A stretch of 64,000 nt of DNA from Candidatus Omnitrophota bacterium (GTDB taxonomy: Bacteria > Omnitrophota > Gorgyraeia > Duberdicusellales > 4484-171): the NCBI GenBank assembly GCA_041652815.1, contig JBAZGN010000001.1, positions 97,363-161,362 on the forward strand, in the 5' to 3' direction. The notes beneath the pieces are model-generated. The model was not told the DNA's origin. It searched no databases and saw only the letters and a list, made by a program, of their open reading frames with translations. Each line of letters begins with the position of its first letter. The first letter of the stretch is position 1. The translations under genes were made by a program, and so were the position numbers. Shown piece by piece: positions 29,759-49,515 of the stretch.

Positions 29759-29770
29759 CGCTTCGCTCCA

Positions 29771-30665: not shown

Positions 30666-32228
30666 TTATCTTTTGACTTCGAATGCTTTCGAAACACTTG
30701 CGGAACCTATATTTATGGTTTCCGGCGGAACTTTTTCCTCCGGCTTTATAATATGCACTGTTATAAATATCAACAGGTCAATTTTTTGTGAATAATACGA
30801 ATCGCGGCCGAAAGCCCAACCTACCAATGGAAGGTCTTTAAGCACGGGTATCCCTGTTCTTTCTTTTGCTTTTCTGTCCTTAAGCAGGCCGCCCATAACT
30901 ATCGTATCGCCATCTTTGACTACGATTTGCGTTTGGGCTTCTCTTGTGTCGATTATGGGATACTCTGCAAGGATAGTTGTTCCGCTTTGAATCTTACTTG
31001 TGCCATTCTGAGTGGATACAACAGGATGGATAATCATATTTATGTACTCGTCCCGCTCTCCGCATGCCTGGGGAACAACATTTAGCTGTATGCCTATATC
31101 CTGATACTTATCCAGAGACCCGCCGATTATCTGCGAACTCTGCTCGCTAACCTGTGTTTTTAAGATGGGAAATTTTGTTCCAACCATGATAGAAGCTTCC
31201 TGATTGTTAAGCGTAAGTATGCTTGGCGCGGAAAGCGTATTTGTATTTACATCATTTTCAAGAGCATGCATAACTATTTCAAATTCTGCTCCGGTAAGAT
31301 GCTTAAAATCTATTTTTAAGCCCGTATTATTCTCGGTAAGGGAAGTACCCGTCGGAAAAACAGATGGGGTTTGCCCGGAAAGAGAATGCCCGCCCAAAGT
31401 CTTTGTGTTTTTTCCGCTTAGGTTAAGTTGGTCAAATGCAAACGTAGCACTTGATGCGCCGGTTGTCCCTGTTCCGAATTCAAAACCAATATCCCGCAAA
31501 AGATTTCTGTCAACCTCCATAACTCTCGTTTTTATGAGGATTTGCTGCGGCATTACATCTATTTCCTTAAGAAGCTTTTCTATCTCATCGAGGCTCTTGG
31601 ATATATCCGAGACAACAAGGACTTTTGTTCTTGAGATTTGGCCTTCCTCTGCCCTTTTACGTTTAGCCACATCGTCTCCGAATTCCCAACCAGCTTGCCC
31701 GGTTGCCTCAAGAACCGAAGCTTTGCCTACCGGAGAAAGCAATGATTCAATGGCTTTTTTTGCATCATTTGCATCCAAGTATTTAAGTTTAAACACTTTT
31801 AACTTGGGCACTTCTATTTCCTGCCTTTCTTTTTCCTGGACATCTTTTTCTTTTATTTCATCAACTGTCGCAACAAGAATTATATTGTCGCCGCTCCATT
31901 TATAGCTATATCCATAGGCATCCAAAACACCTTTAAGGGCGGTTTGCCAATCGACACTCTCTAAATTAACGCTCACTAAGCCTTCTACTTTAGGGCTTAC
32001 TACTATATTTACCTTTTTGCCGTTTTTTACAGCTTTCTGGGATATCGATTGCAAAACAACTTTAATGTCTGCGTCCTTAAATTTGATAACAGGAATTACC
32101 TCCTGGGAAAATGAAACAAAAATGGCGATAGAAGAAAAAACAAATAAAACAAAAATTGCCAAAAAAAGCCTTGAAAGGTTTTTTGATTTATAATCAGAAA
32201 TTATCTGTATTATCCTGGATATTTTCAT
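30666..32228 (-). CDS. pilQ: Type IV pilus / T2SS secretin
   Basis: C-terminal secretin domain (…IVMGGLLKDRKAKERTGIPVLKDLPLVGWAFG…). Confidence 0.8.
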   Translation of the reverse strand: MKISRIIQIISDYKSKNLSRLFLAIFVLFVFSSIAIFVSFSQEVIPVIKFKDADIKVVLQSISQKAVKNGKKVNIVVSPKVEGLVSVNLESVDWQTALKGVLDAYGYSYKWSGDNIILVATVDEIKEKDVQEKERQEIEVPKLKVFKLKYLDANDAKKAIESLLSPVGKASVLEATGQAGWEFGDDVAKRKRAEEGQISRTKVLVVSDISKSLDEIEKLLKEIDVMPQQILIKTRVMEVDRNLLRDIGFEFGTGTTGASSATFAFDQLNLSGKNTKTLGGHSLSGQTPSVFPTGTSLTENNTGLKIDFKHLTGAEFEIVMHALENDVNTNTLSAPSILTLNNQEASIMVGTKFPILKTQVSEQSSQIIGGSLDKYQDIGIQLNVVPQACGERDEYINMIIHPVVSTQNGTSKIQSGTTILAEYPIIDTREAQTQIVVKDGDTIVMGGLLKDRKAKERTGIPVLKDLPLVGWAFGRDSYYSQKIDLLIFITVHIIKPEEKVPPETINIGSASVSKAFEVKR

Positions 32229-32613
32229 TATTTTCCTCCAGTTTTAAAATAATTACTTCTTTGCCTTTCTGCAGGATGACCTTTTTTCTGCTTATTTTCA
32301 TAACTCTATAATCATCTATTATATCACTTTCCTTGAATACTTCATCACCTATAATAGCAACACTGCCATCTTTTGAATAGATAATACCTTTTAAAACCAA
32401 TCCCGCCGGGCCGATATTCTTTTTTACAAGTAATTGCCCGGTTTCGGTTATAAGCGGAGAGAATGGGTCACGCTGTTCGTTGGTAAAAGGGTATTTATTA
32501 TTTTCGCAAATACCTTTAAGCTGCGAAACAAACAAATAAAGCATACACAGTAATGATAATCCTAACCCTATTCCAACCGTACGATAATTTATCAATTTTT
32601 TAGAAGTAAACAT
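32194..32613 (-). CDS. pilP: Pilus assembly lipoprotein PilP-like
   Basis: TM/lipobox, then C-terminal LKGIIYSKDGSVAIIGDEVFKESDII beta-domain. Confidence 0.6.
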   Translation of the reverse strand: MFTSKKLINYRTVGIGLGLSLLCMLYLFVSQLKGICENNKYPFTNEQRDPFSPLITETGQLLVKKNIGPAGLVLKGIIYSKDGSVAIIGDEVFKESDIIDDYRVMKISRKKVILQKGKEVIILKLEENNENIQDNTDNF

Positions 32614-32657: not shown

Positions 32658-32756
32658 TAACCCCGCACCAGAACTCACTCCGCTCCTTCGGTGCGGGGTT
32701 AATTCGGCTACGCAACTTTTCGACACCTTTCAGGCTTGAAAAGTTGCTGCCTCATT
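32658..32756. repeat. aattcggctacg...ctgcctcatta family copy, intra-operon between pilO and pilP
   Basis: ccccgcacc...ggtgcgggg hairpin, then ttaattcggctacgcaacttttc...gaaaagttgctgcctcatta. Confidence 0.6.
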
Positions 32757-33294
32757 AATTTTCTTTTATTAAACCGCATATTACCATTTCTATCGAATGA
32801 TACGGAGAATCTGATAAAATCTGCATCTCCAAAACGTCAAAAAAATACTTGCCGGTTTGAAGGAAATCCATAAATTGCGCAAAGTTATGAAAAGAGCCTA
32901 TGGCACTTATGGTAATTGGCAGGCATTTAAACTTGCCAATTTTGCTCGCTGCATAATCCTGCAAAGCTTGTGGCTTTATTACTTTTATTTGCACACTGAA
33001 GTTTTTGCTTTCTGTAGAAATATAAGAAAACAGCGCTGAATCCTGCTGGGGCAGTATAAACTTTTCTCGCATATCGTCTATTTCCTTCGTAAGGGTTTCA
33101 CTCTTGCTTACATACCTATCTTTATTTGGCCATTCTTTTTCAATTGTTGCAAGGTCTTGCCTTATTTTGGATATTTTTTTATTTATATTGAAAACTATAC
33201 CTGCGCCTAAAACCAACAAAATAATTTCGCCAATTGACACAATCACTAAAACAATGGCTACAATAATATTTTTATCTAACTTTAGTTTGCGCAT
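32755..33294 (-). CDS. pilO: Type IV pilus assembly protein PilO
   Basis: N-terminal TM plus coiled coil, in PilO position. Confidence 0.65.
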   Translation of the reverse strand: MRKLKLDKNIIVAIVLVIVSIGEIILLVLGAGIVFNINKKISKIRQDLATIEKEWPNKDRYVSKSETLTKEIDDMREKFILPQQDSALFSYISTESKNFSVQIKVIKPQALQDYAASKIGKFKCLPITISAIGSFHNFAQFMDFLQTGKYFFDVLEMQILSDSPYHSIEMVICGLIKEN

Positions 33295-33836
33295 TCTATA
33301 TAAAATTCAAGCACTTCCGCTCCGTTAAAATTATTCTTTTGCGAGTCCTTTATATTTATCTTTTTAAACCTGGAGTTGAAATATTCTTTAGCCTTTAAAT
33401 TATTGATGAACTTTTCTAAAGAAACAAGGTAATCTTCATCGATTTTAACTACATACCCTCTTATATCCAACGTATCTTTTTTTAAGCCCATGGTATTAAA
33501 CCATATATTTTTAGGAAGAGAAGAAAAAATATCTTCGAAGACCTTTGCCATTTGGTTTTTGGGTGTAAGTATTCTTTTAAACTCATTCCTGTCGCTTTCA
33601 AGCCCGGCTATATCTTTTTTTATCTTGTTAATTGTTTCGTATCTTTCTTTCCATTTTGACCATTTAATATCTTCATATTTATAGACGCTCGCGCGCATTG
33701 CAATGAAAACCCCGAGGGCTATGATAATAGCTAATAAAAAAATGGCGGCCAGGCCGGAATAATAAGAAAAATCTTTCACAAAAATGTTTTCTTCTTTTTT
33801 CTGCTTTGGGCTTAGATTTATATATATATTATCCAT
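33282..33836 (-). CDS. pilN: Type IV pilus assembly protein PilN
   Basis: Bitopic protein with TM IFLLAIIIALGVFIA, in PilN position. Confidence 0.65.
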   Translation of the reverse strand: MDNIYINLSPKQKKEENIFVKDFSYYSGLAAIFLLAIIIALGVFIAMRASVYKYEDIKWSKWKERYETINKIKKDIAGLESDRNEFKRILTPKNQMAKVFEDIFSSLPKNIWFNTMGLKKDTLDIRGYVVKIDEDYLVSLEKFINNLKAKEYFNSRFKKINIKDSQKNNFNGAEVLEFYIECAN

Positions 33837-33848: not shown

Positions 33849-34832
33849 CTATAGCACAAGGCCGCTGCTTACCGCAAAGGTATTTTTTAAGCTATTGAAT
33901 TGCTCCGGGCTAAAAGCTGATTTCAAATTTAAAAGATTATCCAAAGACAAGACCGTAGATTCAAGATGCTCCTTAAATAATGCGTCTATGCCGATAACTG
34001 AAGAAAGCCCGCCGGTTAAAAAAACCTTTTCTATGCGTTCTCCTTTATTCACCTCGAAATAATCAAAAGAGCTTTTGACCTCTTTACATAACGCCGTTAC
34101 ATTATCTTGTGATAATTCCAAAAATTCTTTATGATTTTCGGATAGGCTCACCCATTTGTCTATTTCCTCAAACGGTATATTTTTTATATGCGATATAATA
34201 CTTAAAATATCCTTTGTGCCGAATGTTAAATCCCTTGTCATAAACGGAATGCCATTTTTTAAAACAGTAAGCGTAGAAAACCCGTAACCGATATCAAGGA
34301 CGCTGGTGTTGATTTTCCTCTCCTCTTTGTAATAATTCAAAAAAACATTAACCAGGCATATGCTATCAAGGCTTATATCCAGGATTTCTTTTTTTTCCTT
34401 CTCGAAGATATCTATAGTGTTATTTATAAGTTCTTTCTTGGCTACGGCAAGCAACAGAAACATATCGGCTGGGTTTTCTTCCAAAATAGAAAAATCAAAA
34501 TATACTTCTTCCGGGGAAAAAGGAATATGCTTATTCAATTCATAAAAAAGTGTTTGTTTAATTTTATTTTTATCGAGCCTGGGAAAGTTGAAATACCTGA
34601 CTAGCGTTGAATGGTCTTTGAGGGATATTTTTACTTTGTTGGTTGTGATATTTTTTTCTTGCCATATTTGTTTCAGGGCGTCCGGAAAAGCTTTTCTTTC
34701 CTTTATGAAATAGTCCCTAATACGGCCGCCGCGGACGATCAGCCCTTTTACATAATAGTTGCCTATATTAATACCAACGAAATCCTGAGTTTCTTTTTTT
34801 AAAAATTTATTGAACAGGGGGATCGCTTTCAC
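33849..34832 (-). CDS. pilM: Type IV pilus assembly ATPase-fold protein PilM
   Basis: Actin-like fold (VGINIGNYYVKGLIV...LDIGYGFSTL). Confidence 0.75.
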   Translation of the reverse strand: MKAIPLFNKFLKKETQDFVGINIGNYYVKGLIVRGGRIRDYFIKERKAFPDALKQIWQEKNITTNKVKISLKDHSTLVRYFNFPRLDKNKIKQTLFYELNKHIPFSPEEVYFDFSILEENPADMFLLLAVAKKELINNTIDIFEKEKKEILDISLDSICLVNVFLNYYKEERKINTSVLDIGYGFSTLTVLKNGIPFMTRDLTFGTKDILSIISHIKNIPFEEIDKWVSLSENHKEFLELSQDNVTALCKEVKSSFDYFEVNKGERIEKVFLTGGLSSVIGIDALFKEHLESTVLSLDNLLNLKSAFSPEQFNSLKNTFAVSSGLVL

Positions 34833-35265
34833 TCGCTGGCCCTCCTTCTTTCGCCCTTATGATTCCGGTTTCATCCAGATAGAAATATCGGGCACCGGTT
34901 TTACCCGGGCTTTTTGGGCTGGCTAGAAGACGGAAATTATCATCATCTTGGTATTCGTATACGTAGAGATAGCCCGACTTGGCATTATCTATAAAATCTT
35001 TGTCGATATAAGGGGGGTTTGAGTTAGGAGCTACAAGATCATCAAAGTTTTTAGGGTATTTATAATCATTGGTCATAGAATACTGTTGGATTGATTTTCC
35101 TAAAGAACTGAGGTTGCTTATAGTAGCAACCTCATTTGAATTAATTCGGGCGCGCAGTACATTAGGCACCACTAAGACGGCTAATACCAAAATTATGGAT
35201 ACCGCAATCATAATTTCAACAAGAGTAAACCCCTGCTGGAAAATTTTTTCTTTTTGCTTAGTCAT
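34807..35265 (-). CDS. Prepilin-type N-terminal cleavage/methylation-domain protein (pilin or pseudopilin)
   Basis: Leader MTKQKEKIFQQG then FTLVEIMIAVSIILVLA. Confidence 0.75.
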   Translation of the reverse strand: MTKQKEKIFQQGFTLVEIMIAVSIILVLAVLVVPNVLRARINSNEVATISNLSSLGKSIQQYSMTNDYKYPKNFDDLVAPNSNPPYIDKDFIDNAKSGYLYVYEYQDDDNFRLLASPKSPGKTGARYFYLDETGIIRAKEGGPASESDPPVQ

Positions 35266-35518
35266 TTAGCTAATTAATATATATTAAGGAATGCTTCTTC
35301 TAAAAAAATAACACCTTTTGCCCGCAATAGTATGTGTTGAGGCTAACTTTTTAAAAGTTACTCCCCAATTAAACTCTTAGAAATATATTAATATGGGGAA
35401 TGAGGTTTGTCAATTTATCTCTTTATCCGAAGGAAGGTATCTGAGATTTTTTTGTGGTGAAAATAAAAAGAGGGGCAATATACTTGCCCCTCTTTTATGA
35501 TAAACTTATTTTTGCGGA

Positions 35519-35968
35519 TCAACTAGTTGGCGGTAAAAGTAAACATGCAGCGCGGCTAGCAATAGCTCCTCCAGCTGCCTGAACCCTGATTACGCCATCA
35601 TCAGCTACACAGAATGAACGTGTTCCGGTCTGGTTTGCCGTAACAGGGACAGCGCTAACACAAAAAGTATTTGCATCAGGTGCCGCTTGGGCATCGGCAA
35701 ATACATAACCCTGTTTTCCACCAACATCATCAACTGTTGCATCGATATACGGCGGAACCGCTGCTATCAACTGTGCCAACGTAGCATAAAGAGGATTAAC
35801 GCTTCTGTAACTTTGCTCGACAGCGGAAATAGTACCCAATGTTGACTGAGCTGCTGTTTCATTGGCATTAAGCCTTTGACGTAAAATGTTAGGAATAGAA
35901 ATTGCAGCTAATAACGCGATGATTGCAACAACGATCATAATTTCTACAAGAGTAAAACCTTTTTTCAT
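35519..35968 (-). CDS. pilA: Type IV major pilin
   Basis: MKKG then FTLVEIMIVVAIIALLAAISIPN. C-terminal Cys pair. Coding region is clearly more GC/Ala-rich than its neighbours. Confidence 0.8.
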   Translation of the reverse strand: MKKGFTLVEIMIVVAIIALLAAISIPNILRQRLNANETAAQSTLGTISAVEQSYRSVNPLYATLAQLIAAVPPYIDATVDDVGGKQGYVFADAQAAPDANTFCVSAVPVTANQTGTRSFCVADDGVIRVQAAGGAIASRAACLLLPPTS

Positions 35969-36389
35969 CTTACACCTCCGTTTTTTACCATTTCAAAGCC
36001 CTTTTTTACCTCTTACACCTCCTTTTTAAGAGCTTTGCTTAATAAAATAATTATAAAGAAATATCTCAAATTAAGGTTAAATTAGGTAAAAGATTAGAGA
36101 ATGAGGGGGTCTGTTTAGATAATTTAGAAGACAGGCTTATAAAGCTCAAATACGGATTATAATAATAAAACACCGTTATTGCCTTATAACCGGTCTTTTA
36201 GCGAAAGATAAGGCCTTTTTACCCCTCACAGAAACCCTGTATTTTAAAGAGCATTCTTTGCTACTTAAAATATAACATATACTCTTGGCGTTGTCAATCC
36301 ACATAAATGCCCGTGGATATTGGGGTTTTTAACTTTTGAAGGTTTAAAAGCCGTAATCGGATAGATTTCAGCCATAAGAGCCCTTCCGG

Positions 36390-37613
36390 CTATTTAGTCA
36401 AATGCTGCGTTATCTGGATAATCGGCAGAAATAAAGAAATAACTATTCCGCCTACAACAATACCCAAAAACACTATAATTAAAGGCTCAATTAAGCTTGA
36501 AAGGCCGGCAACCATAGCGTCAGTCTGCTCTTCGTAAAATTGTGCAACCTTTGAAAGCATTTCTTCAAGCCGGCCACTACGCTCTCCTATCGAAATCATC
36601 CTTACAACCATCGGCGGGAAAATACCTGTTTCCTCAAGCGGGGCGGAGATAGTCTGGCCTTCCTGGATAAACTTTTTTGATTTCATTACTGCCTCTTCTA
36701 TAATCTTGTTGCCTGAAGTTTTTCCGACTATCTCAAGGCATTTTATTATGGGCACACCGCTTTTAATTAAAGTGGAAAAAGTCCTGGCAAATCTTGCTAT
36801 TGCTATCTTTTTAATGAGATCTCCTAATACCGGCAATTTAAGAAGCATTTTATGGTAATTTTTTTTACCCTTATCTGTATTTATATACTTTAAAAATAAA
36901 AATATACTGATACCTAAAAAGATGAGAATGACTATCATATTTTCTTTCTTACTTAAAAAAGTTGAAACATTTATCAATATTTGTGTAGGCAGAGGAAGCT
37001 TGGCGTTTAAGCTGTCAAAAATACCTTTAAAAGTGGGGATTACGCGAATCATGAGAAATGTCGTAATACCTATCGCCATAAGCACAACCACTATTGGATA
37101 ATACATTGCAGAAATTATTTTTTTCTTTAATGCGCTGCTTTTTTCAAGATATACGGAAACCCTGTCCAGAATCGAAGGTAAATTTCCGCTTACCTCTCCT
37201 GCCTCAACCATACTTATGTATATTTCTGGAAATATCCGTGGGTGTTTACCAAAGGCGCTGGATAAAGATGCGCCTTCTTTTACATCTTTTAATATAAAGC
37301 CTAAAGCCTCCTTAAAAGTGTTGCCTTCTACCTGGCTGCGCAATATTTCCAAACACTCAACCACAGGGATACTGCTTTCAATAAGCGTTGTAAATTGACG
37401 GGAAAAAACTACAAGGTCGTCGCTTTTAACGCCTCCTTTAGCTCCGCCTTTCGACCTTTTTTTCGCTTCAGACACGGAAAAAATCATGTATCCTTCTTTT
37501 TGAAGGTACTCAACAAGTTTTTCCTTAGATTCCGCGTCTACGAAACCCTTTACAGTTTTTCCTTCTTTATTTTTTACGGTATATGAAAATGTTAACATAT
37601 CTCTCCAAGTCAA
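36390..37613 (-). CDS. pilC: Type IV pilus inner-membrane platform protein PilC (GspF family)
   Basis: Duplicated T2SS-F domains. Confidence 0.8.
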   Translation of the reverse strand: MTWRDMLTFSYTVKNKEGKTVKGFVDAESKEKLVEYLQKEGYMIFSVSEAKKRSKGGAKGGVKSDDLVVFSRQFTTLIESSIPVVECLEILRSQVEGNTFKEALGFILKDVKEGASLSSAFGKHPRIFPEIYISMVEAGEVSGNLPSILDRVSVYLEKSSALKKKIISAMYYPIVVVLMAIGITTFLMIRVIPTFKGIFDSLNAKLPLPTQILINVSTFLSKKENMIVILIFLGISIFLFLKYINTDKGKKNYHKMLLKLPVLGDLIKKIAIARFARTFSTLIKSGVPIIKCLEIVGKTSGNKIIEEAVMKSKKFIQEGQTISAPLEETGIFPPMVVRMISIGERSGRLEEMLSKVAQFYEEQTDAMVAGLSSLIEPLIIVFLGIVVGGIVISLFLPIIQITQHLTK

Positions 37614-37702: not shown

Positions 37703-39382
37703 TTACTCTGTCGTTGCGCGTAAGACCTCTTCTATAGAAGTTGTGCCTTCAATGCAATGCGCAAACCCATTTTCTCGTAAAGGCCTGTAACCTCTGTTTT
37801 TCATTGCGTATTCGATGATTTCGTCTTCCGAGCGCCGGCTTATAATCATTTCTTTCATTTTATCATCCAAAAGAAGAACCTCCAATATGGCTATTCTTCC
37901 CCTGTAACCGGTATCATTACAATAGCTACACCCCTTTGGTATGAAGAATGTCCTGTTATTGGTTTCAATTTTTAAGTTTTTCAAAACTTTTTCTTCTATC
38001 TCATATTTTTCTTTACATTTGGAACAAAGTTTCCGGACTAACCTTTGAGCTGTTGCCGCAACTAAAGACGATGCCAAGAGGAAAGGTTCGATGCCCATAT
38101 CGATAAGCCTGGTTATAGCGCCAACTGCTGTATTTGTATGCAGAGTCGAAAGAATAATTTCTCCGGTTAAAGATGCCTTTATTGCTATATCTGCTGTTTC
38201 GCTGTCTCTGATTTCTCCTACCATTATTATATCCGGCGACTGCCTGAGCACTGAACGCAAACCGTTTGCGAAAGTAAGCCCTATTTCGGTATTTACATGA
38301 ATTTGCGTTATCCCTTCTATCTGATACTCTATAGGATCTTCTATGGTGACTATGCTTTTTTCGGGAGTGTTTGTTTGATTAATTATCGAATAAAGTGTTG
38401 TTGATTTTCCGCTTCCCGTGGGCCCGGTTACAACAATCATTCCAAAAGGAGCTTTTGTCGCTTCCTCAAAAAGCTTAAGCGGCTCATCTGAGAACCCCAA
38501 GGCTTTTAAGCCGGTCGATAGATTTTCTTTGTCCAAAACTCTTAAAACAAATTTTTCCCCAAAATGCGTAGGCAGGCTTGATACTCGAAAATCTATCTCT
38601 CTGCCTTCGAATTTAACCTTGAAACGGCCGTCTTGCGGCAGGCGTGACTCGGTTATGTCCAAAGAAGAAATTATTTTAAGGCGTGCTATTACTGCTTGCT
38701 GGTTCTTTTTAGGAAAATTAAATTCTTCATGCAGGCTTCCATCTATTCTGTATTTTATTACTAATCTGTCTTGATAAGGCTCAACATGGATATCTGAGGC
38801 CCGTTTTTTTAAAGCATTGTAAATAAATAAATCAACCGCGCGCACAATCGGCGGGCGGGCGCTTTCATCAATCAGGGTTTCAAGAGAATCTTTTGCTTCA
38901 AAAACCTCACCTACTTCAAAATAAGAATCCTCATCGATAAATTTGGCAGTATCTTCCGTCTTATACAATATGCTTAGCGCTTTAACAATATCATCTTCCC
39001 TGGAAAGCACCAAGTCTACTCTTTCTGCACCGGTTATTATTTTGATATCGTCGTGGCTTAAAACATTTAAAGGGTTGCCGGTCGAAATAGTTAAAGCATT
39101 ACCAATTCTGCACACCGGAAAAACTTTATACCTAAAAGCTATATCTTGGGGTAACAAATCTTTATTTTTATAAGGTACTTTATATTTCTTCAAATCCAGA
39201 AAAGGTATCTTAAATTCTTTAGAAAAGATCAGAAGAAGCTCTTCTTCTGTCACAAGGTGGTTGTCGATAAGCAAGTGCTTAAAAATATCGTAGTTAGAAG
39301 CCCCCTCTATAGATTTAAGTACGTGCTTATTTATACTTTTATTTGCCTGTATGTAACTTAATATTTTATTTTTTAAACTCAT
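37703..39382 (-). CDS. GspE/PilB-family secretion ATPase (paralog 2)
   Basis: N-terminal T2SSE_N domain. Walker A GPTGSGKSTTLYS. C-terminal tetracysteine CSKC...CSYC. Confidence 0.8.
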   Translation of the reverse strand: MSLKNKILSYIQANKSINKHVLKSIEGASNYDIFKHLLIDNHLVTEEELLLIFSKEFKIPFLDLKKYKVPYKNKDLLPQDIAFRYKVFPVCRIGNALTISTGNPLNVLSHDDIKIITGAERVDLVLSREDDIVKALSILYKTEDTAKFIDEDSYFEVGEVFEAKDSLETLIDESARPPIVRAVDLFIYNALKKRASDIHVEPYQDRLVIKYRIDGSLHEEFNFPKKNQQAVIARLKIISSLDITESRLPQDGRFKVKFEGREIDFRVSSLPTHFGEKFVLRVLDKENLSTGLKALGFSDEPLKLFEEATKAPFGMIVVTGPTGSGKSTTLYSIINQTNTPEKSIVTIEDPIEYQIEGITQIHVNTEIGLTFANGLRSVLRQSPDIIMVGEIRDSETADIAIKASLTGEIILSTLHTNTAVGAITRLIDMGIEPFLLASSLVAATAQRLVRKLCSKCKEKYEIEEKVLKNLKIETNNRTFFIPKGCSYCNDTGYRGRIAILEVLLLDDKMKEMIISRRSEDEIIEYAMKNRGYRPLRENGFAHCIEGTTSIEEVLRATTE

Positions 39383-39463
39383 TTCTAAAGCCTTCAGCTA
39401 TCAGCTTTCAGTCTTCAGCTGAAAGCAGAAGACTGATGGCTGAAAGCTTTTTTAGTCTTTAGT

Positions 39464-41158
39464 CTATCCCAATGGTTCGTCCGGGCCCGTAACTTTCAAT
39501 ACTTCTTCAAGAGTAGTTATGCCTTTAACCACCTTGATTAATCCATCTTCCCTTAAAGTGCGCATGCCTAAAAGCCTGGCTTCCCTTTTTATAATATGTT
39601 CGGAAGTTGAGCTATTAACTAACGCTCTTATTTTTATGCCTACAGGAAGATATTCACAAAGCACAGTCCTTCCTTTATAGCCTGCGTTTTGACACGAATT
39701 ACACCCTTTAGCTTTATAGAGCTTTGCCTGTTTGTCTATAGAGTATTTCTCTCTAATAGCGTCAGGCATTGTAAACTCCTCTTTACATTTATTGCAAAGC
39801 GTGCGCACTAACCTTTGGGTTAAAACACCGATGAGCGTAGAAGAAAGTAAAAATGGTTCAATGCCCATGTTAAGAAGCCTGGTTACAGAGCCAGGGCTGG
39901 TTGTTGTATGAAGTGTCGATAAAACCATATGCCCGGTTAGAGCTGCTTTTATAGCAATATCTGCGGTATCAAAATCTCTTATTTCTCCTATCATTATTAT
40001 GTCGGGGTCTTGGCGTAAAATAGAACGCAGGCATGATGCAAAAGTCAGATTTATCTGAGGGTTAATACTTACCTGGTTTATACCTTTTAATTGATACTCT
40101 ATGGGGTCTTCGACGGTTATTATGTTTTTCTCCGGAGCGTAGATATGGGATATTGTAGCATAAAGCGTTGTAGTCTTTCCGCTGCCGGTTGGCCCGCAAA
40201 CAAGAATTAAACCGTGCGGCTTAAGGCTGTCTTCCTTAACCTGCTTAAGAACATCTTCTTCAAAGCCCAAAAGATCCAAATCAAGAAGCGCTGTAGTTTT
40301 GTCAAGAATCCTTAGCGCGCATTTTTCCCCCATACTGGACGGCAAAACAGAAACCCTAAAATCAACGTTTCTATCGGAAATAATACTTCTAAATCTGCCT
40401 TCTTGGGGAAGCCTATGTTCTGCGATATTTAAGTTACACATTACTTTTACGCGGGACACCACAAAGGGATGCATTTTTTTAGGAAAAGTTTCTGCTTCGC
40501 GCAATAATCCATCTACCCTGAACCTTACCCTGCTTGTTTTTTCCAATGGCTCTATCAATATATCTGATGCCCGTTCATATACGGCTTTCTTTAACATAGA
40601 GTTGGTGAATTTTATAACCGGAGCTTCGTCTATGGAGCCAATCTCTTCCCCTGTTCCTTCTTTCTCTCTTATTATTTCAAGATTCTCCGGCCGTTGGCCT
40701 TCTATAATATCCTCAAGCGAGGTCAGCGGCTGGCGGCTATAATGGGCGGCTATTGCTTCCTTCATTTCAGACAAAGGCGCTATCACGGGGTTTATTTCAC
40801 ATCCGGTAATTTTCTTTAAGTCATCTATAGCCAAGACGTTTAAAGGGTCGCTCATCGCAACGGTTATGGAGTTACCAATTTTACCTATAGGCATAGCTTG
40901 TAAGTTGTGCGCAAGTTTTTCAGGAATAAGGTCTAAAATTTCTTTTGTGATATTTAAATTAAGAACTCTCATCGGCGGGATTGAAAGATATTCCGAAAGT
41001 ATACTTATAATCTGCGATTCCTGCATAATGCCGAGCTTTACAAAAAGTTCAACCAAAGACCCACCTTTTTCTTTTTGGGTAGACAAGGCTTTTCCCAGGT
41101 CATCTTTCGAAATAAGCTTTTTATCGATAAGGTAGTCGGTAAATTTCTCTTTCACCAT
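39464..41158 (-). CDS. GspE/PilB/MshE-family secretion ATPase (paralog 1)
   Basis: T2SSE_N domain with partial MshEN-like motif. Walker A GPTGSGKTTTLYA. CNKC...CNSC. Confidence 0.8.
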   Translation of the reverse strand: MVKEKFTDYLIDKKLISKDDLGKALSTQKEKGGSLVELFVKLGIMQESQIISILSEYLSIPPMRVLNLNITKEILDLIPEKLAHNLQAMPIGKIGNSITVAMSDPLNVLAIDDLKKITGCEINPVIAPLSEMKEAIAAHYSRQPLTSLEDIIEGQRPENLEIIREKEGTGEEIGSIDEAPVIKFTNSMLKKAVYERASDILIEPLEKTSRVRFRVDGLLREAETFPKKMHPFVVSRVKVMCNLNIAEHRLPQEGRFRSIISDRNVDFRVSVLPSSMGEKCALRILDKTTALLDLDLLGFEEDVLKQVKEDSLKPHGLILVCGPTGSGKTTTLYATISHIYAPEKNIITVEDPIEYQLKGINQVSINPQINLTFASCLRSILRQDPDIIMIGEIRDFDTADIAIKAALTGHMVLSTLHTTTSPGSVTRLLNMGIEPFLLSSTLIGVLTQRLVRTLCNKCKEEFTMPDAIREKYSIDKQAKLYKAKGCNSCQNAGYKGRTVLCEYLPVGIKIRALVNSSTSEHIIKREARLLGMRTLREDGLIKVVKGITTLEEVLKVTGPDEPLG

Positions 41159-41271
41159 TCAACCTCGCTTCGCTCGGTTAGTTCACAGAGTACAGATTAC
41201 AGAAAGCAGAGTACAGAATAATTTCTTATTTCTTCTCTGTTCTCTATACTCTGTTATCTGTTCTCTTTTTC

Positions 41272-41709
41272 TTAATAGAACTTCTCTATCGCTTTCCTTA
41301 TGTCCGAGGGGGTACTGACAAAAACCTGGATATCGCAGTGGCTTAAATCTTCCAGGTCTTCTATCGCCTGAGTATTCAAGGGGTTAGCTATGGCTACCGT
41401 TAAGGTGGCTCCGATTTTGTCCAGTGCTATCAGGCAATAATGCGTAGCAACATTCTTGGGTACTAAACTTACTGTTTCTTTGGAAACTTCATAATTCTCT
41501 AGGGGAAGGTAAGGAAACCCGAACTGAAGGCTAAGGCAATGCGCAATCTCATCTTCCTTGGCAAATCCTAATTTTGCAATAACCTCTCCAATTAAACCAC
41601 CATCTTTATTCTGGACAGCTAGAGCTTTTTCCAGTTGCTCAAAGGTGATAACGCCCCTTTCTACCAGAATCTGGCCCAAAGGTTTTTCTACTTTTTTAGG
41701 AGGTTTCAT
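41272..41709 (-). CDS. Stand-alone T2SSE_N (MshEN) domain protein with two c-di-GMP-binding-type motifs
   Basis: LGQILVERGVITFEQLEKALAVQ and LIGEVIAKLGFAKEDEIAHCLSLQ fit the MshEN consensus LGxxLVxxGxIxxxQLxxALxxQ. Confidence 0.6.
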   Translation of the reverse strand: MKPPKKVEKPLGQILVERGVITFEQLEKALAVQNKDGGLIGEVIAKLGFAKEDEIAHCLSLQFGFPYLPLENYEVSKETVSLVPKNVATHYCLIALDKIGATLTVAIANPLNTQAIEDLEDLSHCDIQVFVSTPSDIRKAIEKFY

Positions 41710-43042
41710 TTGCTTGCGATGTGCCGATGTGGGATTCGGCGAAAAGTATAAGTTCTTTTGCAGTTACACCGTCTATCGGATTTTCCGCTACAGAAAAGGA
41801 GAGTTTCACTTGATTCTTAAAATTATCTTCTATTTTCTTTTTAAGTTCTTTGGCGATTGCCTGCGATTGCCTTTTATTCTTTTCTATCAAAATCGCACAC
41901 AAACGGCTTAATCCGAACCTTCCGGGTATATCAATTGGCCTTAAGCCTTCTTTAAATATCTTTGCGGTCTTTTTTACCAGCTTCTCCGATTCAATCGGGC
42001 CGAATCTCTCTTGATATTCCTTATAATTGGATATTTCCATAAATAATAATGCGCAGGGGCGCTGATAAGAAAGAGACCTTATCATTTCTTCGTCAAGCCT
42101 TTTTCTAATATACTTTTCGTTATATAATCCGGTCAAATAATCAAACACTTCAAGTTCATCTACTTTATGAGAAAGCCTCTTGTGCTCCCAGATAATTGCG
42201 ATATTTTGAGAAAAAAGATTAAGCACGCTTAAATCATCCTTGCTAAACATAAAATTATCAAGGTGTGAAGCAGCAACTAAAATTCCGACTTGCTGGTTTC
42301 TGGAAAGAATCGGCACAACAGCCATATTAATCACACCTAATCCATTTGCAAGCTTCGTATAAGGAAAACTCTTGTTTTCTTTATCTAGAATAAATGTTCT
42401 TCCGGCCTTATATAAATCAGAATTTTTTTCATCGATAATTTCTTCAACTTTTGCGGCATCAATTCCGCAATAGCTTGCTAATTCGAATTTTCCGGAAAGC
42501 TCATCCAAAAGGATACAAAAGCTTATTTTCATTTCCACTATTTCTTTCAAACGCTGATTTAGAAATTGAAGTATTTCCCGGGGAGGCAATTCTTTTGAGA
42601 ATAAATCGTTTGCCTGTAAAATTGTAGACAAAACCAAAACTTTCTTTGAAACTTCCTGGTTTAATTCTTCTGCTTTCTGGCTGAAATCTTTAAGTTGCTC
42701 CAGGCCGCTTCTCATTTTGGAAGAAAGTATATTAATTATCGATTCAAGGCTCTGCACTTCATTGGCCACATCAGGAGCATCTTCGCCTATGTTTTTCAGT
42801 GTTTTTTTAGAATTAGAATATACCCTTACGATTGAAGTAAAAACTTCGAAAATTATCCACCACCCCAGGGATATAATTAAAAAAGCAGCGACTACGGCAT
42901 GAATCGAAATGTACAGGCCGCTAAAGTGGTAAATGATGACAATAAGCGGAATTAATGTAACCAGGGATATAGCTATCCAAATTCTTCTTTTTAAACTTAA
43001 TTCCTGGATCGAAAATTTTTTTTTCTTATCATTATTAGGCAT
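41696..43042 (-). CDS. Membrane-anchored GAF-like plus degenerate GGDEF-domain protein (probably non-catalytic)
   Basis: Two N-terminal TM helices. GGDEF fold (FDYLTGLYNEKY...) with the active-site motif replaced (GRFGLSRL instead of RxGGDEF) and metal-binding Asp residues lost. Confidence 0.6.
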   Translation of the reverse strand: MPNNDKKKKFSIQELSLKRRIWIAISLVTLIPLIVIIYHFSGLYISIHAVVAAFLIISLGWWIIFEVFTSIVRVYSNSKKTLKNIGEDAPDVANEVQSLESIINILSSKMRSGLEQLKDFSQKAEELNQEVSKKVLVLSTILQANDLFSKELPPREILQFLNQRLKEIVEMKISFCILLDELSGKFELASYCGIDAAKVEEIIDEKNSDLYKAGRTFILDKENKSFPYTKLANGLGVINMAVVPILSRNQQVGILVAASHLDNFMFSKDDLSVLNLFSQNIAIIWEHKRLSHKVDELEVFDYLTGLYNEKYIRKRLDEEMIRSLSYQRPCALLFMEISNYKEYQERFGPIESEKLVKKTAKIFKEGLRPIDIPGRFGLSRLCAILIEKNKRQSQAIAKELKKKIEDNFKNQVKLSFSVAENPIDGVTAKELILFAESHIGTSQANETS

Positions 43043-43148
43043 GTAATTTTAATTTTTAAATATTCTTTTTATAACTCAAGCTACACCCGCCGCAACCACC
43101 CTTCTAGGCATACATTTAAATAAAGCTTAACATTTTTCGCCTTAGATG

Positions 43149-43535
43149 TCAATTGAAGCTGGTTTCCTTAAAGGAGAGTATTACATTTATACCCTTAAGT
43201 ATCTCATCTATAGTATAAGGCTTTGTGACATAGTAATCTGCTTCCAGGGAATAACCTTTTTTTATATCCTCAAGCTCCTTTTTGCCGGTTGCCAGCATGA
43301 CAAAAATATCCGGCTTATTTTTTTTAATCCACTTAAGCACTTCCAGGCCGTCCAGCTCCGGGAGTATTATATCCAAAACCACCACATCCGGCATAAAATC
43401 TTGCACCTTCTGAATAGCGTCTTTACCGTCAACGGAAGTTTCAACTTTAAAATTAAACCTGCGAAGCCCTTCCGCAAGCAAGGTTAGTGTATCTTTCTCG
43501 TCTTCAACAACCAGAATTTTTTTTCCTCCAGGCAT
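43149..43535 (-). CDS. Single-domain CheY-like response regulator receiver
   Basis: KKILVVEDE...DVVVLDIILPELDG...LATGK. GGAGG RBS before MPGGKK. Confidence 0.75.
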   Translation of the reverse strand: MPGGKKILVVEDEKDTLTLLAEGLRRFNFKVETSVDGKDAIQKVQDFMPDVVVLDIILPELDGLEVLKWIKKNKPDIFVMLATGKKELEDIKKGYSLEADYYVTKPYTIDEILKGINVILSFKETSFN

Positions 43536-43625
43536 ATTAATTACCTCCCCCCTTGCAACCACAGATATTATTCATCCGTGCCATCTACCCGCCCTTAAGC
43601 TATGTTAAAAGCACCTATGGTTGCA

Positions 43626-44156
43626 TTATTTGATTTCTCCGTTTTTTATTACTGCTATCATGTCCTTAAGAAATTCTCTTTCAGCACTTGCTAATTTGAA
43701 ATGATGTTTAAGCAGTAATGTTAAATTCTTTGGTGTATTTTTATGTTCTTTTTCTTTTTCAAGCAACCATCGTTTTACCTTTTCCAAAAACCAAAGCCGC
43801 AGCCTTAGTAGCGGCAAAATCTTTTTTTTATCAAGGAAAGGTAAAAAATATAAAGCCACATCTAATTCAACGAAAGGTTGACGCTGCGAAAGAAATATTT
43901 GCCTGCAAAGCTCGAAGAATTCCTTCTCTCCGCGAGGCGTTATATGATAAATGTATTTATTAAGGTTCTTTTTCCCTTTAATTTCCTTTTTTTTTACAAG
44001 GCCCTGCTCCTCCATTTTGCTAAGAGGGTAGTATATCGATTGCATTTCAAATTCAGAAAAAATTCCCATTTCTTTCTGAATTATTTTTTTTATCTGATAA
44101 CCGTGCTTGGGGCCTTCTTTTAAAATACCTAATATTACAAGCCGCTGTATACGCAT
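43626..44156 (-). CDS. PadR-family transcriptional regulator
   Basis: ILGILKEGPKHGYQIKKII...YYPLSKMEEQGLV. Confidence 0.75.
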   Translation of the reverse strand: MRIQRLVILGILKEGPKHGYQIKKIIQKEMGIFSEFEMQSIYYPLSKMEEQGLVKKKEIKGKKNLNKYIYHITPRGEKEFFELCRQIFLSQRQPFVELDVALYFLPFLDKKKILPLLRLRLWFLEKVKRWLLEKEKEHKNTPKNLTLLLKHHFKLASAEREFLKDMIAVIKNGEIK

Positions 44157-44227: not shown

Positions 44228-45181
44228 TTATTCCTTAAACACACCCATCTTTCTGAATTTATCGTACCTTAGCTTAAGAAGTGTGTTTATATCCATACTT
44301 GTCAACTCTTTCAGACCCTTTAAGATTGACTCTTTTAAATTCTTAGCCGTTATTTCATAATTTCTATGGGCGCCGCCTTCAGGCTCCTGGATAATTTCAT
44401 CTATTATTCCTAAGTTTAATAAATCCGGCGCGGTTAATTTTAAAACTTTTGCTGCTTCCTTTTTTGCCGCTGCATCTTTCCACAAAATAGCAGCGCATCC
44501 TTCCGGAGAAATAACTGAATAATAAGCGTATTCCATTGTTAAAACTTTATCCCCCACCCCAATTCCCAAGGCTCCCCCTGACCCACCTTCGCCTATCACG
44601 ACAACAACAATTGGGGCCCTGATGCAAAACATATCTCGTATATTTTCTGCAATCGCTAGGGCTTGTCCGCGCTCTTCAGCCCCTATTCCCGGATACGCGC
44701 CTGGTGTATCAATAAGACAAACTATAGGCAAACCAAATCTTTCTCCAAGGCGCATAAGCCTGATTGCTTTACGGTACCCTTCAGGATTTGCACAACCAAA
44801 GCTTCTGGCAATGTTTTCTTTTGTATCTTTGCCTTTTTGGTGCCCGATAAGAACAATTTTTTTGTCATCCAGCGTTGCAAGACCGGCAATAATCGCCCTG
44901 TCTTCTCCGAAAAGCCTATCACCGCACAAAAGCAAAAAATCTTTCATTATAAGATTGATATAATCCATGGTGGTAGGCCTTTTTGGATGGCGGGCGATTT
45001 GTATTGTCTGCCAGGGAGATAAATTAGAATAGATTCCTTTTTTGAGGTTCTTTAATTTTTTCTCCAAATTATTTATCTCTGCAGATAGATCAACTTCTTT
45101 TTCTGCAGAGAACCTCCTCAACTCTTCAATCTTTCTCTCCAACTCAATAACTGGTTTTTCAAAATCCCAATTTTCTATCAT
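44228..45181 (-). CDS. accA: Acetyl-CoA carboxylase carboxyltransferase alpha subunit
   Basis: Full-length AccA motifs (…IGHQKGKDTKENI…DTPGAYPGIGAEERGQ…). Confidence 0.9.
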   Translation of the reverse strand: MIENWDFEKPVIELERKIEELRRFSAEKEVDLSAEINNLEKKLKNLKKGIYSNLSPWQTIQIARHPKRPTTMDYINLIMKDFLLLCGDRLFGEDRAIIAGLATLDDKKIVLIGHQKGKDTKENIARSFGCANPEGYRKAIRLMRLGERFGLPIVCLIDTPGAYPGIGAEERGQALAIAENIRDMFCIRAPIVVVVIGEGGSGGALGIGVGDKVLTMEYAYYSVISPEGCAAILWKDAAAKKEAAKVLKLTAPDLLNLGIIDEIIQEPEGGAHRNYEITAKNLKESILKGLKELTSMDINTLLKLRYDKFRKMGVFKE

Positions 45182-47536: not shown

Positions 47537-48859
47537 TTAATTTTCCTCCCAGGATAATGTAGTGTAGTCTCCGGTATTAGGCATAAAGGGCGGTGGGCTA
47601 TTTATAAATCTTGAGTCATGTATATAATTTTTGTCGTATCCGCTCATTTTGGTTGAACCACTAAAAGTGCCGACAGGGCCCCTTAAGTCCTGGATTATTC
47701 CTCCGTAGACGGTTAAAGTCCCTTTCATATAGTCATCCCAGTTTTCCATCATAAAAGAGTTGTTTAAAGCCATAACGGCGGCGTCAATTTCCAGGTTTGA
47801 AGGCGCAATATCATCAATTACCACATCCGATTCAGAAATTATACCAAGGGTATCATCTGAGGTACCGTCTCTCGGATCATCGGCGTAAACAATATTATTG
47901 GGAATAATGACATCCTGGCTTGCGCCTACGGTTAACCTGCCGTTTAGAGTTCCGGAAACAGTCAAGGTTCCATTATTCACAAATAAAGCCCCGTTTGTTG
48001 GTATGCTTACTGTGCATCCAGACCTACATCCTGATTTATTTCTGTTTGTCAGGTATATAGTCCCATTACTGTTAAACACCGCGGTAGTATTACCTGTTAA
48101 GTAAAGCCCGCCGGTACTTGCGGCAGCGGAACGTAAGGCAAGCGCATTTTCCGGCATATCAATATGTGCAACCCCAAGTTCAATCCCATCATTGAAAACA
48201 GGGACATCATTCGGTGGATTGCTGGTAAGGTCGGGTAATTCGTCGGAAGTAACAGGGTTATTATTGTTATAAAAATATATGTAGGGGTCTACTGAGTGAG
48301 CCCTACCATCAAATACAGGGTTACCGGCGATATTGTAATGGCTATTAGTGTGTGTGGGGCCGCTTAAATGGTCGCGTGTCCAGAACCAGACGTTTTGGCA
48401 ACGATTCCAGTCGTCACAATAAGTCTCTGAATTAGTCCACCAAAGATATCCTCCAAAATTATCTACTTTAAGATAATTTGACAAAACCCTACTCATATTC
48501 CCGAAAGTCCCCGTAGAAGTTACTTTATATCTTCTAACCAGCGGGTTGGTGCCTACCGGACCAAGGTCATCTATGGCAACAGTGTAAGTGCCTCCGCCTA
48601 CATTCTGAGGCCCACCCCAAGGGTCAACCGAATCAGCCGCAGGCGGTGAATCCTGGCTTCTTAACCAAAGAAGGGCGTGGTCGAGCCCTGCCTCAGCAAT
48701 ATTAAATGCAGCAGCTCTTCTCTTAAAGATATCCGCAATAAAAGTCTGGTTTATGCTTGCACTTATAAATGCTGTCGCATAAATAAGTAAAGCTATTATC
48801 ATAACCAAAACAAAGATAAGTGCTGATCCTTTTTTAGTTCTTTTTCTCATCATATTCAT
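47537..48859 (-). CDS. PilX-N-terminal-domain protein, large beta-rich (putative pilus tip/adhesin, PilX/PilY1-like)
   Basis: N-terminal KGSALIFVLVMIIALLIYATAF (PilX_N-like). Asn/Thr/Gly-rich repetitive body. Confidence 0.5.
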   Translation of the reverse strand: MNMMRKRTKKGSALIFVLVMIIALLIYATAFISASINQTFIADIFKRRAAAFNIAEAGLDHALLWLRSQDSPPAADSVDPWGGPQNVGGGTYTVAIDDLGPVGTNPLVRRYKVTSTGTFGNMSRVLSNYLKVDNFGGYLWWTNSETYCDDWNRCQNVWFWTRDHLSGPTHTNSHYNIAGNPVFDGRAHSVDPYIYFYNNNNPVTSDELPDLTSNPPNDVPVFNDGIELGVAHIDMPENALALRSAAASTGGLYLTGNTTAVFNSNGTIYLTNRNKSGCRSGCTVSIPTNGALFVNNGTLTVSGTLNGRLTVGASQDVIIPNNIVYADDPRDGTSDDTLGIISESDVVIDDIAPSNLEIDAAVMALNNSFMMENWDDYMKGTLTVYGGIIQDLRGPVGTFSGSTKMSGYDKNYIHDSRFINSPPPFMPNTGDYTTLSWEEN

Positions 48860-48860: not shown

Positions 48861-49451
48861 TTATCTGTTCCTCATTTTTACAAGAAGCTGGACCGTATCA
48901 TTTAATACTCTTCCTTTTTTATCCGCCTTTTGCACGGTGATATCTATTCGTAACATATCATCAGGAAACGGGTCTGGAGGCGCCAGCCTTGAAAATTGTA
49001 GGCTTGTGATATTGCGCGCAAGCACGCGGTACTCTCCCGAACTGGTCCTCCTTATTATTTCTCCGTTTACATTCCGTTCATAAGTGATAATATCAGCCGA
49101 CCAGCTTATCGACGGCACGAGATTGCCCCAATTTATAACTACTCCGTTGGCATCTTTATTTGGCAAATGGAAATTTAGTGAGGTGGCTGTGGCTCCATCT
49201 GCCAAATCTGTTTGCGCGGGTGCCGTATATTTCAGCTCTTTTTCCATTGTTGTCAATGCCTTTATAATTTCGCGGCGCAATTCGACTTCGACATCGCCCG
49301 AAAACCAGGAACTCATGCCGGTATTTAGCGCGAGAAAGGTCATGCCTATCACTATAGAAAAAATAGCTGCCGCGATAAGGACTTCTAAAATTGTAAACCC
49401 AGCGCAAAAATTATGATTAACGCCCATTTTGCGGGAAAAACTTAGCCTCAT
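48861..49451 (-). CDS. Minor pilin (PilW/GspJ-like), prepilin-type
   Basis: …CAGFTILEVLIAAAIFSIVIGM. Start codon ambiguous; could be at 49427, 49451 or 49511. Confidence 0.55.
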   Translation of the reverse strand: MRLSFSRKMGVNHNFCAGFTILEVLIAAAIFSIVIGMTFLALNTGMSSWFSGDVEVELRREIIKALTTMEKELKYTAPAQTDLADGATATSLNFHLPNKDANGVVINWGNLVPSISWSADIITYERNVNGEIIRRTSSGEYRVLARNITSLQFSRLAPPDPFPDDMLRIDITVQKADKKGRVLNDTVQLLVKMRNR

Positions 49452-49515
49452 CACGTTTCGATGAGAAAGATCTAAAGAGCCCTTATGCTTTTCCAACGAA
49501 AGAAGATTCATCTTT

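Follow-up and report, generated by a model that had tools for sequence, protein, structure and literature searches.

A 64-kb stretch of DNA from the metagenome-assembled genome of a Candidatus Omnitrophota bacterium, analysed as a whole and called the window here, contains the core operon for type IVa pili. In this operon, the tandem genes of two PilB/GspE-type ATPases (PilB1 and PilB2) are preceded by the gene of a protein of 145 amino acids (aa) that represents an entire MshEN/GSPII domain as a free-standing polypeptide. The explanation preferred here, with moderate confidence, is that this protein is a trans-acting receptor subunit for cyclic diguanosine monophosphate (c-di-GMP) in a dual-PilB type IVa pilus motor. 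The 145-aa protein would bind a single c-di-GMP molecule via two tandem 24-residue motifs in the four-helix subdomain at its N-terminus and would act in trans on the extension machinery built from the adjacent PilB1 and PilB2. Its conserved MshEN_C (N1-like) subdomain would attach it either to the ring of PilB1/PilB2 or to the PilM/PilC platform, and this docking would gate pilus assembly by the c-di-GMP level. A membrane protein with a GAF domain and a degenerate GGDEF domain, encoded just upstream, is most likely an additional receptor or a scaffold.

NF053729, the NCBIfam model of the MshE-related c-di-GMP motif, matches residues 10-62 of the 145-aa protein with 58.2 bits (cutoff 38, E 5e-16), and Pfam MshEN spans residues 63-145 (4.8e-17); both matches are far above chance level. 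Two tandem motifs of 24 residues (motif I, residues 10-33; motif II, residues 39-62) and a spacer of five (34-38) form a 53-residue unit that is in gapless register to Vibrio cholerae MshE (VcMshE), and the MshEN_C/N1 subdomain follows (63-145). A PDB sequence search returned PilF, PilB, and VcMshE (5HTL). Query residues 3-119 align to MshE 2-118, with residue n corresponding to VcMshE n-1: L11, G12, L26, L30, and Q33 are VcMshE L10, G11, L25, L29, and Q32, and I40, G41, I55, L59, and Q62 are VcMshE L39, G40, L54, L58, and Q61. In the published MshE structure c-di-GMP is held by the backbone of G11/G40, by two leucine triads (L10/L54/L58 and L25/L29/L39), and by Q32/Q61; the backbone amide of the glycine at motif position 3 reads the guanine (Wang et al. 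2016). Substitutions of MshE G11 abolish c-di-GMP binding. An AlphaFold2 model of the 145-aa protein (predicted local distance difference test score 88, predicted template modelling score 0.78) consists of four helices, MshEN_N, followed by the alpha/beta unit of MshEN_C. Its best Foldseek match is 5HTL, which is MshE with c-di-GMP bound (E 1e-11, template modelling score 0.76), and the next are PilF GSPII domains and the Xanthomonas citri PilB-N/PilZ complex.

The residues that contact the nucleotide in MshE are kept in the family. G12 and G41 are invariant in all 81 orthologues, Q33 and Q62 are each present in 80, and the leucine-triad positions (L11, I55, L59; L26, L30, I40) are hydrophobic throughout. 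The original prediction, which was made from the letters of the window, had called the protein a T2SSE_N/MshEN-only protein with two good motif matches. The domain assignment was borne out, and the two glycines and two glutamines are in exact register; neither motif starts with Arg. Judged from these residues, the 145-aa protein probably binds c-di-GMP. Conservation spans the whole of MshEN_C as well, a subdomain that makes no contact with the nucleotide.

The two ATPases, which are 41 % identical to each other in the window, differ in precisely these positions of their N-terminal domains. A gapless BLASTP alignment places MshEN residue n opposite PilB1 residue n-5; in PilB1 of the window both motif glycines (T7, V36) and the second glutamine (Y57) are lost. 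The glycine positions of the 72 PilB1 orthologues hold T/I/S/A and V/K/S, never Gly, and the second glutamine is Y/G. These substitutions are of the same kind as those that characterise XpsE, which does not bind the nucleotide (G11V, G40L, Q61V). In the 64 PilB2 orthologues, Lys/Arg takes the place of the first glycine, and the leucine position beside it is acidic. Fourteen of them have Gly at the second glycine position, and the second Gln is replaced by Glu; motif I of PilB2 is erased and motif II degenerate. A scan with the published relaxed motif, position 1 being left free, found at least one copy in 78 of the 81 stand-alone proteins, in none of the 72 PilB1 proteins, and in 4 of the 64 PilB2 proteins. 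NF053729 does not match PilB2. PilB1 and PilB2 are predicted to keep the MshEN fold without the residues that nucleotide binding needs.

Both proteins have the N-terminal GSPII domain and the T2SSE core motifs of an assembly ATPase: Walker A, the Asp box, and Walker B with its catalytic Glu are intact in either. PilB1 has an intact His box (TGH) and, in 72 of 72 orthologues, a CxxC...CxxC tetracysteine, a pattern detected in 46 of 64 PilB2 orthologues. The first His of the PilB2 His box is E/Q in 62 of 64 (SLTG[EQ]..[LF]STLHTN), a variant that suggests that the tandem ATPases are functionally specialised. PilB1 and PilB2 stay below the equivalog cutoff of the type IV-A PilB model TIGR02538 (588.6 and 575.6 bits, cutoff 675.65), and their TIGR02533 GspE scores are below the cutoff of that model too. 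The assignment of the locus to type IVa pili was made because of the context, which comprises PilC, PilMNO, PilQ, and pilins.

A genome scan that used one genome per species returned 80 loci, essentially all from Omnitrophota; some of these are deposited as "uncultured Planctomycetia". Comparison at the level of open reading frames (ORFs) showed that the order GGDEF-like gene, MshEN, PilB1, PilB2, PilC, pilin(s), PilM-Q is held throughout. The MshEN gene immediately precedes PilB1 in 74 loci (median gap 28 nt); in the window, its first 14 nt are shared with the end of the GGDEF-like gene that lies upstream. Among the five core genes, MshEN shows the highest conservation in 43 of the 50 loci that have all five. 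The median identities in the near clade were 70 % for MshEN, 68 % for PilB1, 67 % for PilB2, 65 % for PilC, and 48 % for the GGDEF-like protein; in the far clade they were 57, 52, 51, 49, and 31 %, respectively. Databases hold 647 relatives of the 145-aa protein at an E-value of at most 1e-5, one of which, from an Omnitrophica contig, is 100 % identical to it. The best 120 of the 647 are at least 66 % identical over the aligned regions, nearly all measure 142-168 aa, and the named members among them are Omnitrophota. Many of the best 150 relatives in a clustered protein library are single-domain proteins of 145-215 aa. The detached MshEN module had originally been regarded as unusual; it proved to be the rule in Omnitrophota, metagenomes contain many MshEN-only proteins, and PA3740, a nearly stand-alone MshEN binder, is in the literature. 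The accompanying idea of coupling in trans is strengthened because MshEN is fixed upstream of PilB1, is the most conserved gene, and alone keeps the binding determinants; binding and interaction themselves remain predictions from sequence.

Some relatives depart from the single-domain form. Three Omnitrophota-type proteins of 202-218 aa (P0002, P0011, P0019) contain a duplicated N-terminal motif unit, and one locus (L072) has a second MshEN-only gene (4117-4581, 154 aa) between PilB2 and PilC. A natural MshEN-PilB1 fusion was sought among the closest longer relatives. One candidate (P0148, 723 aa, 53 % identical) has the architecture MshEN-PilZ-DUF7305 and no ATPase, and another (P0128) is an ordinary (MshEN)2-T2SSE protein. 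The closest multi-domain relatives (P0148, P0166, P0197, P0219; 42-53 % identity) are MshEN-PilZ fusions. Such fusions, seen in loci L087-L089, combine two c-di-GMP-receptor folds in one chain, and one of them, with DUF7305, lies near a secretin gene; the contigs are short and the gene context is uninformative. By analogy, they may echo the known PilB-N/PilZ contact of Xanthomonas.

The window carries a c-di-GMP-I riboswitch and an intact PilZ protein, and the organism very probably uses c-di-GMP. The riboswitch is a full-length c-di-GMP-I-GGC aptamer; a GC-rich hairpin and a U-run follow it as a terminator-like expression platform, and the next gene downstream encodes a signal-peptide protein of 163 aa. 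In the PilZ protein, both R9-K-F-I-R13 (RxxxR) and N36-I-S38-A-G-G41 (NxSxxG) are intact. A gene of the GGDEF family neighbours the MshEN module in about 68 loci. The GGDEF-like and MshEN genes are directly adjacent in 40 loci, and in 28 a PilT gene stands between them. This PilT/PilU insertion marks the sister clade, which is the more distant one (L043 and L048-L080; for example L054:4725-5825, TIGR01420 466.6 bits, cutoff 319.1). In the sister clade and in three further loci (L081, L083, L085), the pilus operon was also seen directly downstream of mreB-mreC-mreD-pbp2-rodA.

The more distant MshEN-only proteins (35-42 % identity) are likewise encoded directly upstream of pilB. The order in L081, from Omnitrophota, is GAF protein, PilT, MshEN, PilB. 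That in L083 is MshEN, PilB, PilB, HD-GYP, PilC, pilin; the HD-GYP-type protein (HHERYDGKGYP; L083:11821-12861) stands between PilB and PilC, and this locus has no GGDEF gene, yet it keeps MshEN-PilB-PilB. L085 encodes a canonical GGDEF protein with an RxxD inhibitory site (I-site), followed by MshEN, PilB, PilC, a PilS-like kinase, a PilR-like activator, and a pilin; the canonical cyclase gene (L085:7090-8004) overlaps the start of MshEN by 4 nt. MreB of L085 is 74-77 % identical to that of Ca. Auribacterota and other lineages of the Planctomycetes-Verrucomicrobia-Chlamydiae (PVC) group, versus 61 % to that of Omnitrophota. On this comparison L085 probably comes from Ca. Auribacterota or another PVC lineage, and because its MreB is nearest to these groups the linkage of MshEN to pilB probably extends beyond the phylum. 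An intact GGDEF ORF is also present in an Omnitrophota locus (L031).

The GGDEF-like protein of the window has 448 aa. Hydropathy analysis shows a membrane hairpin of two helices (residues 17-74) with almost no external loop, after which come a coiled-coil and two domains, GAF (GAF_2 30.6 bits, cutoff 28.6) and GGDEF (59.5 bits). Alignment to WspR and PleD shows that the GGDEF signature reads GLSRL, that DxD has become E-I-S, and that the metal and GTP residues are replaced. The active site is degenerate in all but one (L050, GGDEF) of 68 aligned orthologues. RPID is located exactly five residues upstream of the GGDEF position, the spacing of an RxxD I-site, and R-x-[IV]-D is kept in the clade of the window. 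A membrane anchor, GAF, and a GGDEF domain with an inactive active site make up an architecture like that of PelD. Homology to PelD was considered but is not supported by the sequence: Pfam and NCBIfam gave no PelD match, and a PDB sequence search returned only ordinary GGDEF domains. The 448-aa protein, which resembles PelD in architecture only, most likely acts as a scaffold or further receptor. It is most likely descended from an active local cyclase and most likely cooperates at the membrane with the MshEN protein.

Several observations weigh against a trans-acting c-di-GMP receptor. The consensus Arg at motif position 1 (VcMshE R9, R38) is absent: motif I begins with Pro10 after Lys9, and motif II begins with Leu39. 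Position 1 of motif I varies among the 81 orthologues, with P in 42, Q in 24, L in 5, and K in 4, the preceding Lys9 being conserved, and position 39 is Leu in 80. The original prediction had made its case depend on the alignment of the motif arginines to the MshEN consensus. Formally this fails, but the demand is too strict in view of PilF of Thermus thermophilus. Its GSPII-B domain has K167/L196 in place of the motif arginines and binds c-di-GMP with a dissociation constant of 6 nM, GSPII-C has P335 in 'KPLGEILVELG' and a dissociation constant of about 460 nM, and the published relaxed MshEN motif permits [RKPN] at position 1. Since these domains bind without the arginines and the relaxed motif allows such residues, the missing arginines are not disqualifying.

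The other adverse points concern the partners and the setting. PilB1 is predicted to be non-binding because of its Gly and Gln substitutions only, and in the window it passes NF053729 (41.8 bits, cutoff 38). This model was rejected as a discriminator of binders and non-binders, because PilB1 passes it without both glycines, and residue-level criteria were used in its place. The high conservation of MshEN is compatible with a purely structural role. HD-GYP, a second GGDEF gene, a cyclase, or a phosphodiesterase was not found in the window. The distant Omnitrophota clade has T-E-[IV]-D in place of the I-site of the 448-aa protein, and because of this loss of RxxD a receptor role of the GGDEF-like protein is not universal. 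In one locus (L044), PadR-MshEN is followed directly by PilQ and the AAA ATPase, the genes from the ATPases through PilO being missing; this arrangement is due either to a deletion or to misassembly.

It is possible, if unlikely, that the 145-aa protein binds c-di-GMP but acts as a decoy or inhibitor that competes with the ATPases for docking on the platform or caps the ATPases. c-di-GMP would then switch assembly off or between motors, and on the point of binding this explanation overlaps with that of a trans-acting receptor. It fits the common fold and the 33 % identity to the N-domain of PilB1 across the docking subdomain, the position of the gene between PilT and PilB1 in the sister clade, as would suit a choice of motor, and the existence of small protein inhibitors of PilB function such as PlzR. 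The present data do not separate activation from inhibition, and the dependence of MshE, PilF, and Myxococcus xanthus PilB on c-di-GMP binding is a positive one.

A constitutive structural or adaptor subunit that does not respond to c-di-GMP, for instance a bridge from PilB1/PilB2 to PilM/PilC, is considered rather unlikely. The motif-like residues would be kept merely to build the four-helix bundle. The top rank of MshEN in conservation, which covers the non-contacting MshEN_C, the absence of both consensus arginines, and the known use of GspE/PilB N1 domains as docking modules agree with such a role, and the fold matches include the EpsE-N/EpsL and PilB-N/PilZ complexes. However, PilB1 and PilB2 keep the fold without the Gly/Gln/Leu pattern, which means that the fold alone does not need this pattern, and a structural subunit leaves the persistent association with GGDEF/HD-GYP genes unexplained.

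A small chance is given to the proposal that MshEN is an obligatory, exchangeable subunit, gated by c-di-GMP, that selects the motor: PilB1, PilB2, or, in the sister clade, PilT. In loci without PilT, the two PilB paralogues could then run extension and retraction.

It is very improbable that the main partner of MshEN is the protein with GAF and degenerate GGDEF domains and that the pair forms a c-di-GMP signalling module for a different process (adhesion, polysaccharide, or transcription via PadR or the receiver, for example), its genes merely sharing a transcript with those of the pilus. In the window the two genes overlap, and 40 loci have them side by side; a GGDEF protein paired with an MshEN domain has a precedent in DgcJ-NfrB, and close relatives of the domain are joined to PilZ or other modules instead of ATPases. 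Yet PilT splits the pair in 28 loci, while the linkage to PilB1 is invariant, and L083 retains MshEN-PilB-PilB without any GGDEF gene. An artefact, either a PilB gene broken by a split or frameshift or an ORF that arose by chance, has only the small size and the likeness to PilB N-termini in its favour and is dismissed, as 80 species-level genomes contain a separate ORF of 142-168 aa that has a start and a stop to itself and PilB1 has a complete N-domain of its own.

The trans-acting receptor has partial counterparts in a number of known systems. The MshEN domain of V. cholerae MshE (5HTL) shares with the 145-aa protein the two-subdomain fold, the 24+5+24 motif register, the Gly/Leu/Gln contacts, and the association with a pilus extension ATPase. 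Here, in contrast, the domain forms a polypeptide by itself, Pro/Gln and Leu stand in for Arg9 and Arg38, respectively, and the neighbouring ATPases carry degenerate copies. Thermus PilF and the (MshEN)2-4-T2SSE proteins of Clostridia, Deinococcota, and Nitrospirota likewise have a non-binding GSPII domain next to the ATPase and a binding one upstream, and PilF GSPII-C shares the motif start 'KPLGEILVE.G' with the 145-aa protein. The PilF domains are fused in one chain, whereas the putatively binding-competent domain of Omnitrophota is separate and would serve a tandem ATPase pair. The analogy that is best supported is that the MshEN subunit may be the detached counterpart of the extra in-cis GSPII domains of Thermus PilF and of clostridial (MshEN)2-3-T2SSE proteins.

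In the FimX-PilZ-PilB system of Xanthomonas and Pseudomonas, a c-di-GMP receptor apart from the ATPase also acts on the PilB N-domain; there the receptor, a degenerate GGDEF-EAL protein that works with a PilZ adaptor, is unrelated to MshEN in fold, unlike the paralogue of the ATPase's own N-domain seen here. Pseudomonas aeruginosa PA3740 and Cyanothece cce_1044, both listed in the original MshEN paper, are small proteins that are essentially MshEN modules without an ATPase, and PA3740 has been reported to bind c-di-GMP. PA3740 has a highly divergent C-terminal subdomain, whereas the Omnitrophota family has a canonical MshEN_C. Neither protein has been described as encoded beside pilB, in contrast to the fixed pilB synteny of the Omnitrophota family. 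P. aeruginosa PelD, the RxxD of which is a c-di-GMP receptor site, resembles the 448-aa protein in its membrane anchor, GAF domain, and dead GGDEF domain and, as far as the clade of the window is concerned, in an RxxD at the I-site position; the 448-aa protein has two instead of four membrane helices, is linked to pili and not to polysaccharide, and loses RxxD in the sister clade. Two PilB-type ATPases for one pilus system are also known from Acinetobacter baylyi (PilB/TfpB), but the Omnitrophota pair is in tandem and phylum-wide and has the PilB2 His-box variant. TfpB itself is only a weak match for the pair (NF053534, 441-455 bits, cutoff 850).

The MshEN receptor domain, MshEN-only proteins, and trans-acting c-di-GMP receptors on PilB are thus already known, with precedents in the extra in-cis GSPII domains of PilF, the FimX-PilZ receptors that act on PilB in trans, and the local pair DgcJ-NfrB. 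In the literature, no description was found of a stand-alone MshEN protein fixed upstream of tandem PilBs that lack the motif. Omnitrophota are uncultured, ultra-small bacteria thought to rely on type IVa pili for attachment to host or prey; a survey paper on the phylum mentions these pili but not PilB, PilT, or c-di-GMP, and c-di-GMP sensing by MshEN would be the first regulatory input to be proposed for them. According to a review, it is unclear how c-di-GMP binding at the flexible N-domain of PilB drives assembly, and this domain has largely escaped structural study in full-length proteins. A separate binding domain next to non-binding copies on the ATPases would, if true, be a natural dissection of this mechanism, in which receptor, docking surface, and motors could be purified, mutated, and mixed independently. 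The c-di-GMP sensor of a pilus system can be misassigned when only ATPase-borne MshEN domains are counted or when the cutoff of a hidden Markov model is trusted, as PilB1 with NF053729 illustrates.

The features of the window are listed in Table 1. All genes of the pilus locus are on the minus strand and are transcribed from high to low coordinates, in the 5'-to-3' order PadR, receiver, membrane GAF-degenerate GGDEF protein, 145-aa MshEN-only protein, PilB1, PilB2, PilC, pilins, PilMNO, PilQ. The four genes that the original prediction had placed after the ATPases consequently lie upstream of them. Its other assignments held: the tandem GspE/PilB-type ATPases (both match T2SSE at about 1e-132), the membrane GAF-like protein with its replaced GGDEF site, the CheY-like receiver and PadR, and the PilZ protein beside comM, which it put 9 kb away and which lies about 10 kb from the MshEN gene. 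PilB1 and PilB2 are the only T2SSE homologues of the window; the absence of PilT from the locus, also predicted, holds for these 64 kb and is a local one.

Table 1 Features of the window, by decreasing coordinate
Feature	Positions	Strand	Evidence and remarks
tRNA match	55428-55491	-	second of two matches; weak (33 bits), overlaps listed ORFs
tRNA match	55262-55335	-	first of two matches
119-aa single-domain PilZ protein	51807-52166	-	Pfam PilZ 2.4e-13; adjoins comM
comM	50142-51689		ComM Mg_chelatase 1e-91; beside PilZ gene
Minor-pilin-like gene	49516-50052	-	prepilin N-terminal motif; weak GspJ/ComGE matches among the three
Minor-pilin-like gene	48861-49511	-	as above
Minor-pilin-like gene	47537-48859	-	as above
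accA	44228-45181	-	named from own sequence and synteny
PadR-family transcription regulator	43626-44156	-	Pfam PadR 7.1e-15; between accA and pilus genes
Single-domain CheY-like receiver	43149-43562	-	Response_reg 8.4e-26
448-aa membrane GAF and degenerate GGDEF protein	41696-43042	-	Pfam GGDEF 59.5 bits, GAF_2 30.6 bits
145-aa stand-alone MshEN (GSPII) protein	41272-41709	-	Pfam MshEN 4.8e-17; NF053729 58.2 bits
PilB1, 564-aa PilB/GspE-type ATPase	39464-41158	-	Pfam T2SSE 1.4e-132; own N-terminal MshEN-fold domain
PilB2, 559-aa PilB/GspE-type ATPase	37703-39382	-	Pfam T2SSE 8.2e-132; N-terminal MshEN/T2SSE_N domain
PilC/GspF platform protein	36390-37613	-	T2SSF 5.8e-60, two stretches; NCBIfam PilC/GspF models about 1e-115
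Promoter-like site of the probable major pilin	36269-36297		strong
Probable major pilin	35519-35968	-	N_methyl 2.4e-07
Terminator hairpin of the probable major pilin	35466-35496		strong
Second prepilin-type protein	34807-35265	-	N_methyl 3.2e-06
PilM	33849-34832	-	Pfam PilM_2 5.7e-27
PilN	33282-33836	-	Pfam PilN 7.8e-05
PilO	32755-33294	-	Pfam PilO 1.5e-05
139-aa protein in PilP position	32194-32613	-	no family match
PilQ secretin	30666-32228	-	Secretin 1.5e-42; TIGR02515 PilQ 233 bits
ExeA/MshM-like AAA ATPase	29863-30660	-	AAA_22 6.4e-27; downstream of secretin
193-aa single-pass membrane protein	29204-29785	-	no family match; downstream of secretin
c-di-GMP-I-GGC riboswitch aptamer	3913-3989	-	RF03167, 63 bits (gathering 59), E 1.6e-12
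GC-rich hairpin with U-run	about 3840-3870		terminator-like expression platform
163-aa signal-peptide protein	3013-3504		next gene downstream of riboswitch

The stretch from PadR to PilC has short gaps only and no convincing terminator. A scan for promoters and terminators gave counts equal to the shuffled expectation, from which only the promoter and the terminator that flank the probable major pilin stand out. The minor-pilin-like genes, comM, and the PilZ gene lie about 10 kb upstream of the pilus operon. PadR is kept at the same position in the clade of the window (30 loci), and the receiver is found in only 16 of the 80 loci. The acidic pocket, the phospho-acceptor Asp, the Thr, and the Lys of the receiver are all in place, and its true start is likely the Met at codon 10.

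Downstream of the operon, the order of secretin and MshM-like ATPase genes is reminiscent of mannose-sensitive haemagglutinin (MSHA) pilus loci. The best model for this ATPase is TIGR03015, the XrtA/PEP-CTERM-associated ATPase, which it matches with 292.9 bits, below the cutoff of 324.5.

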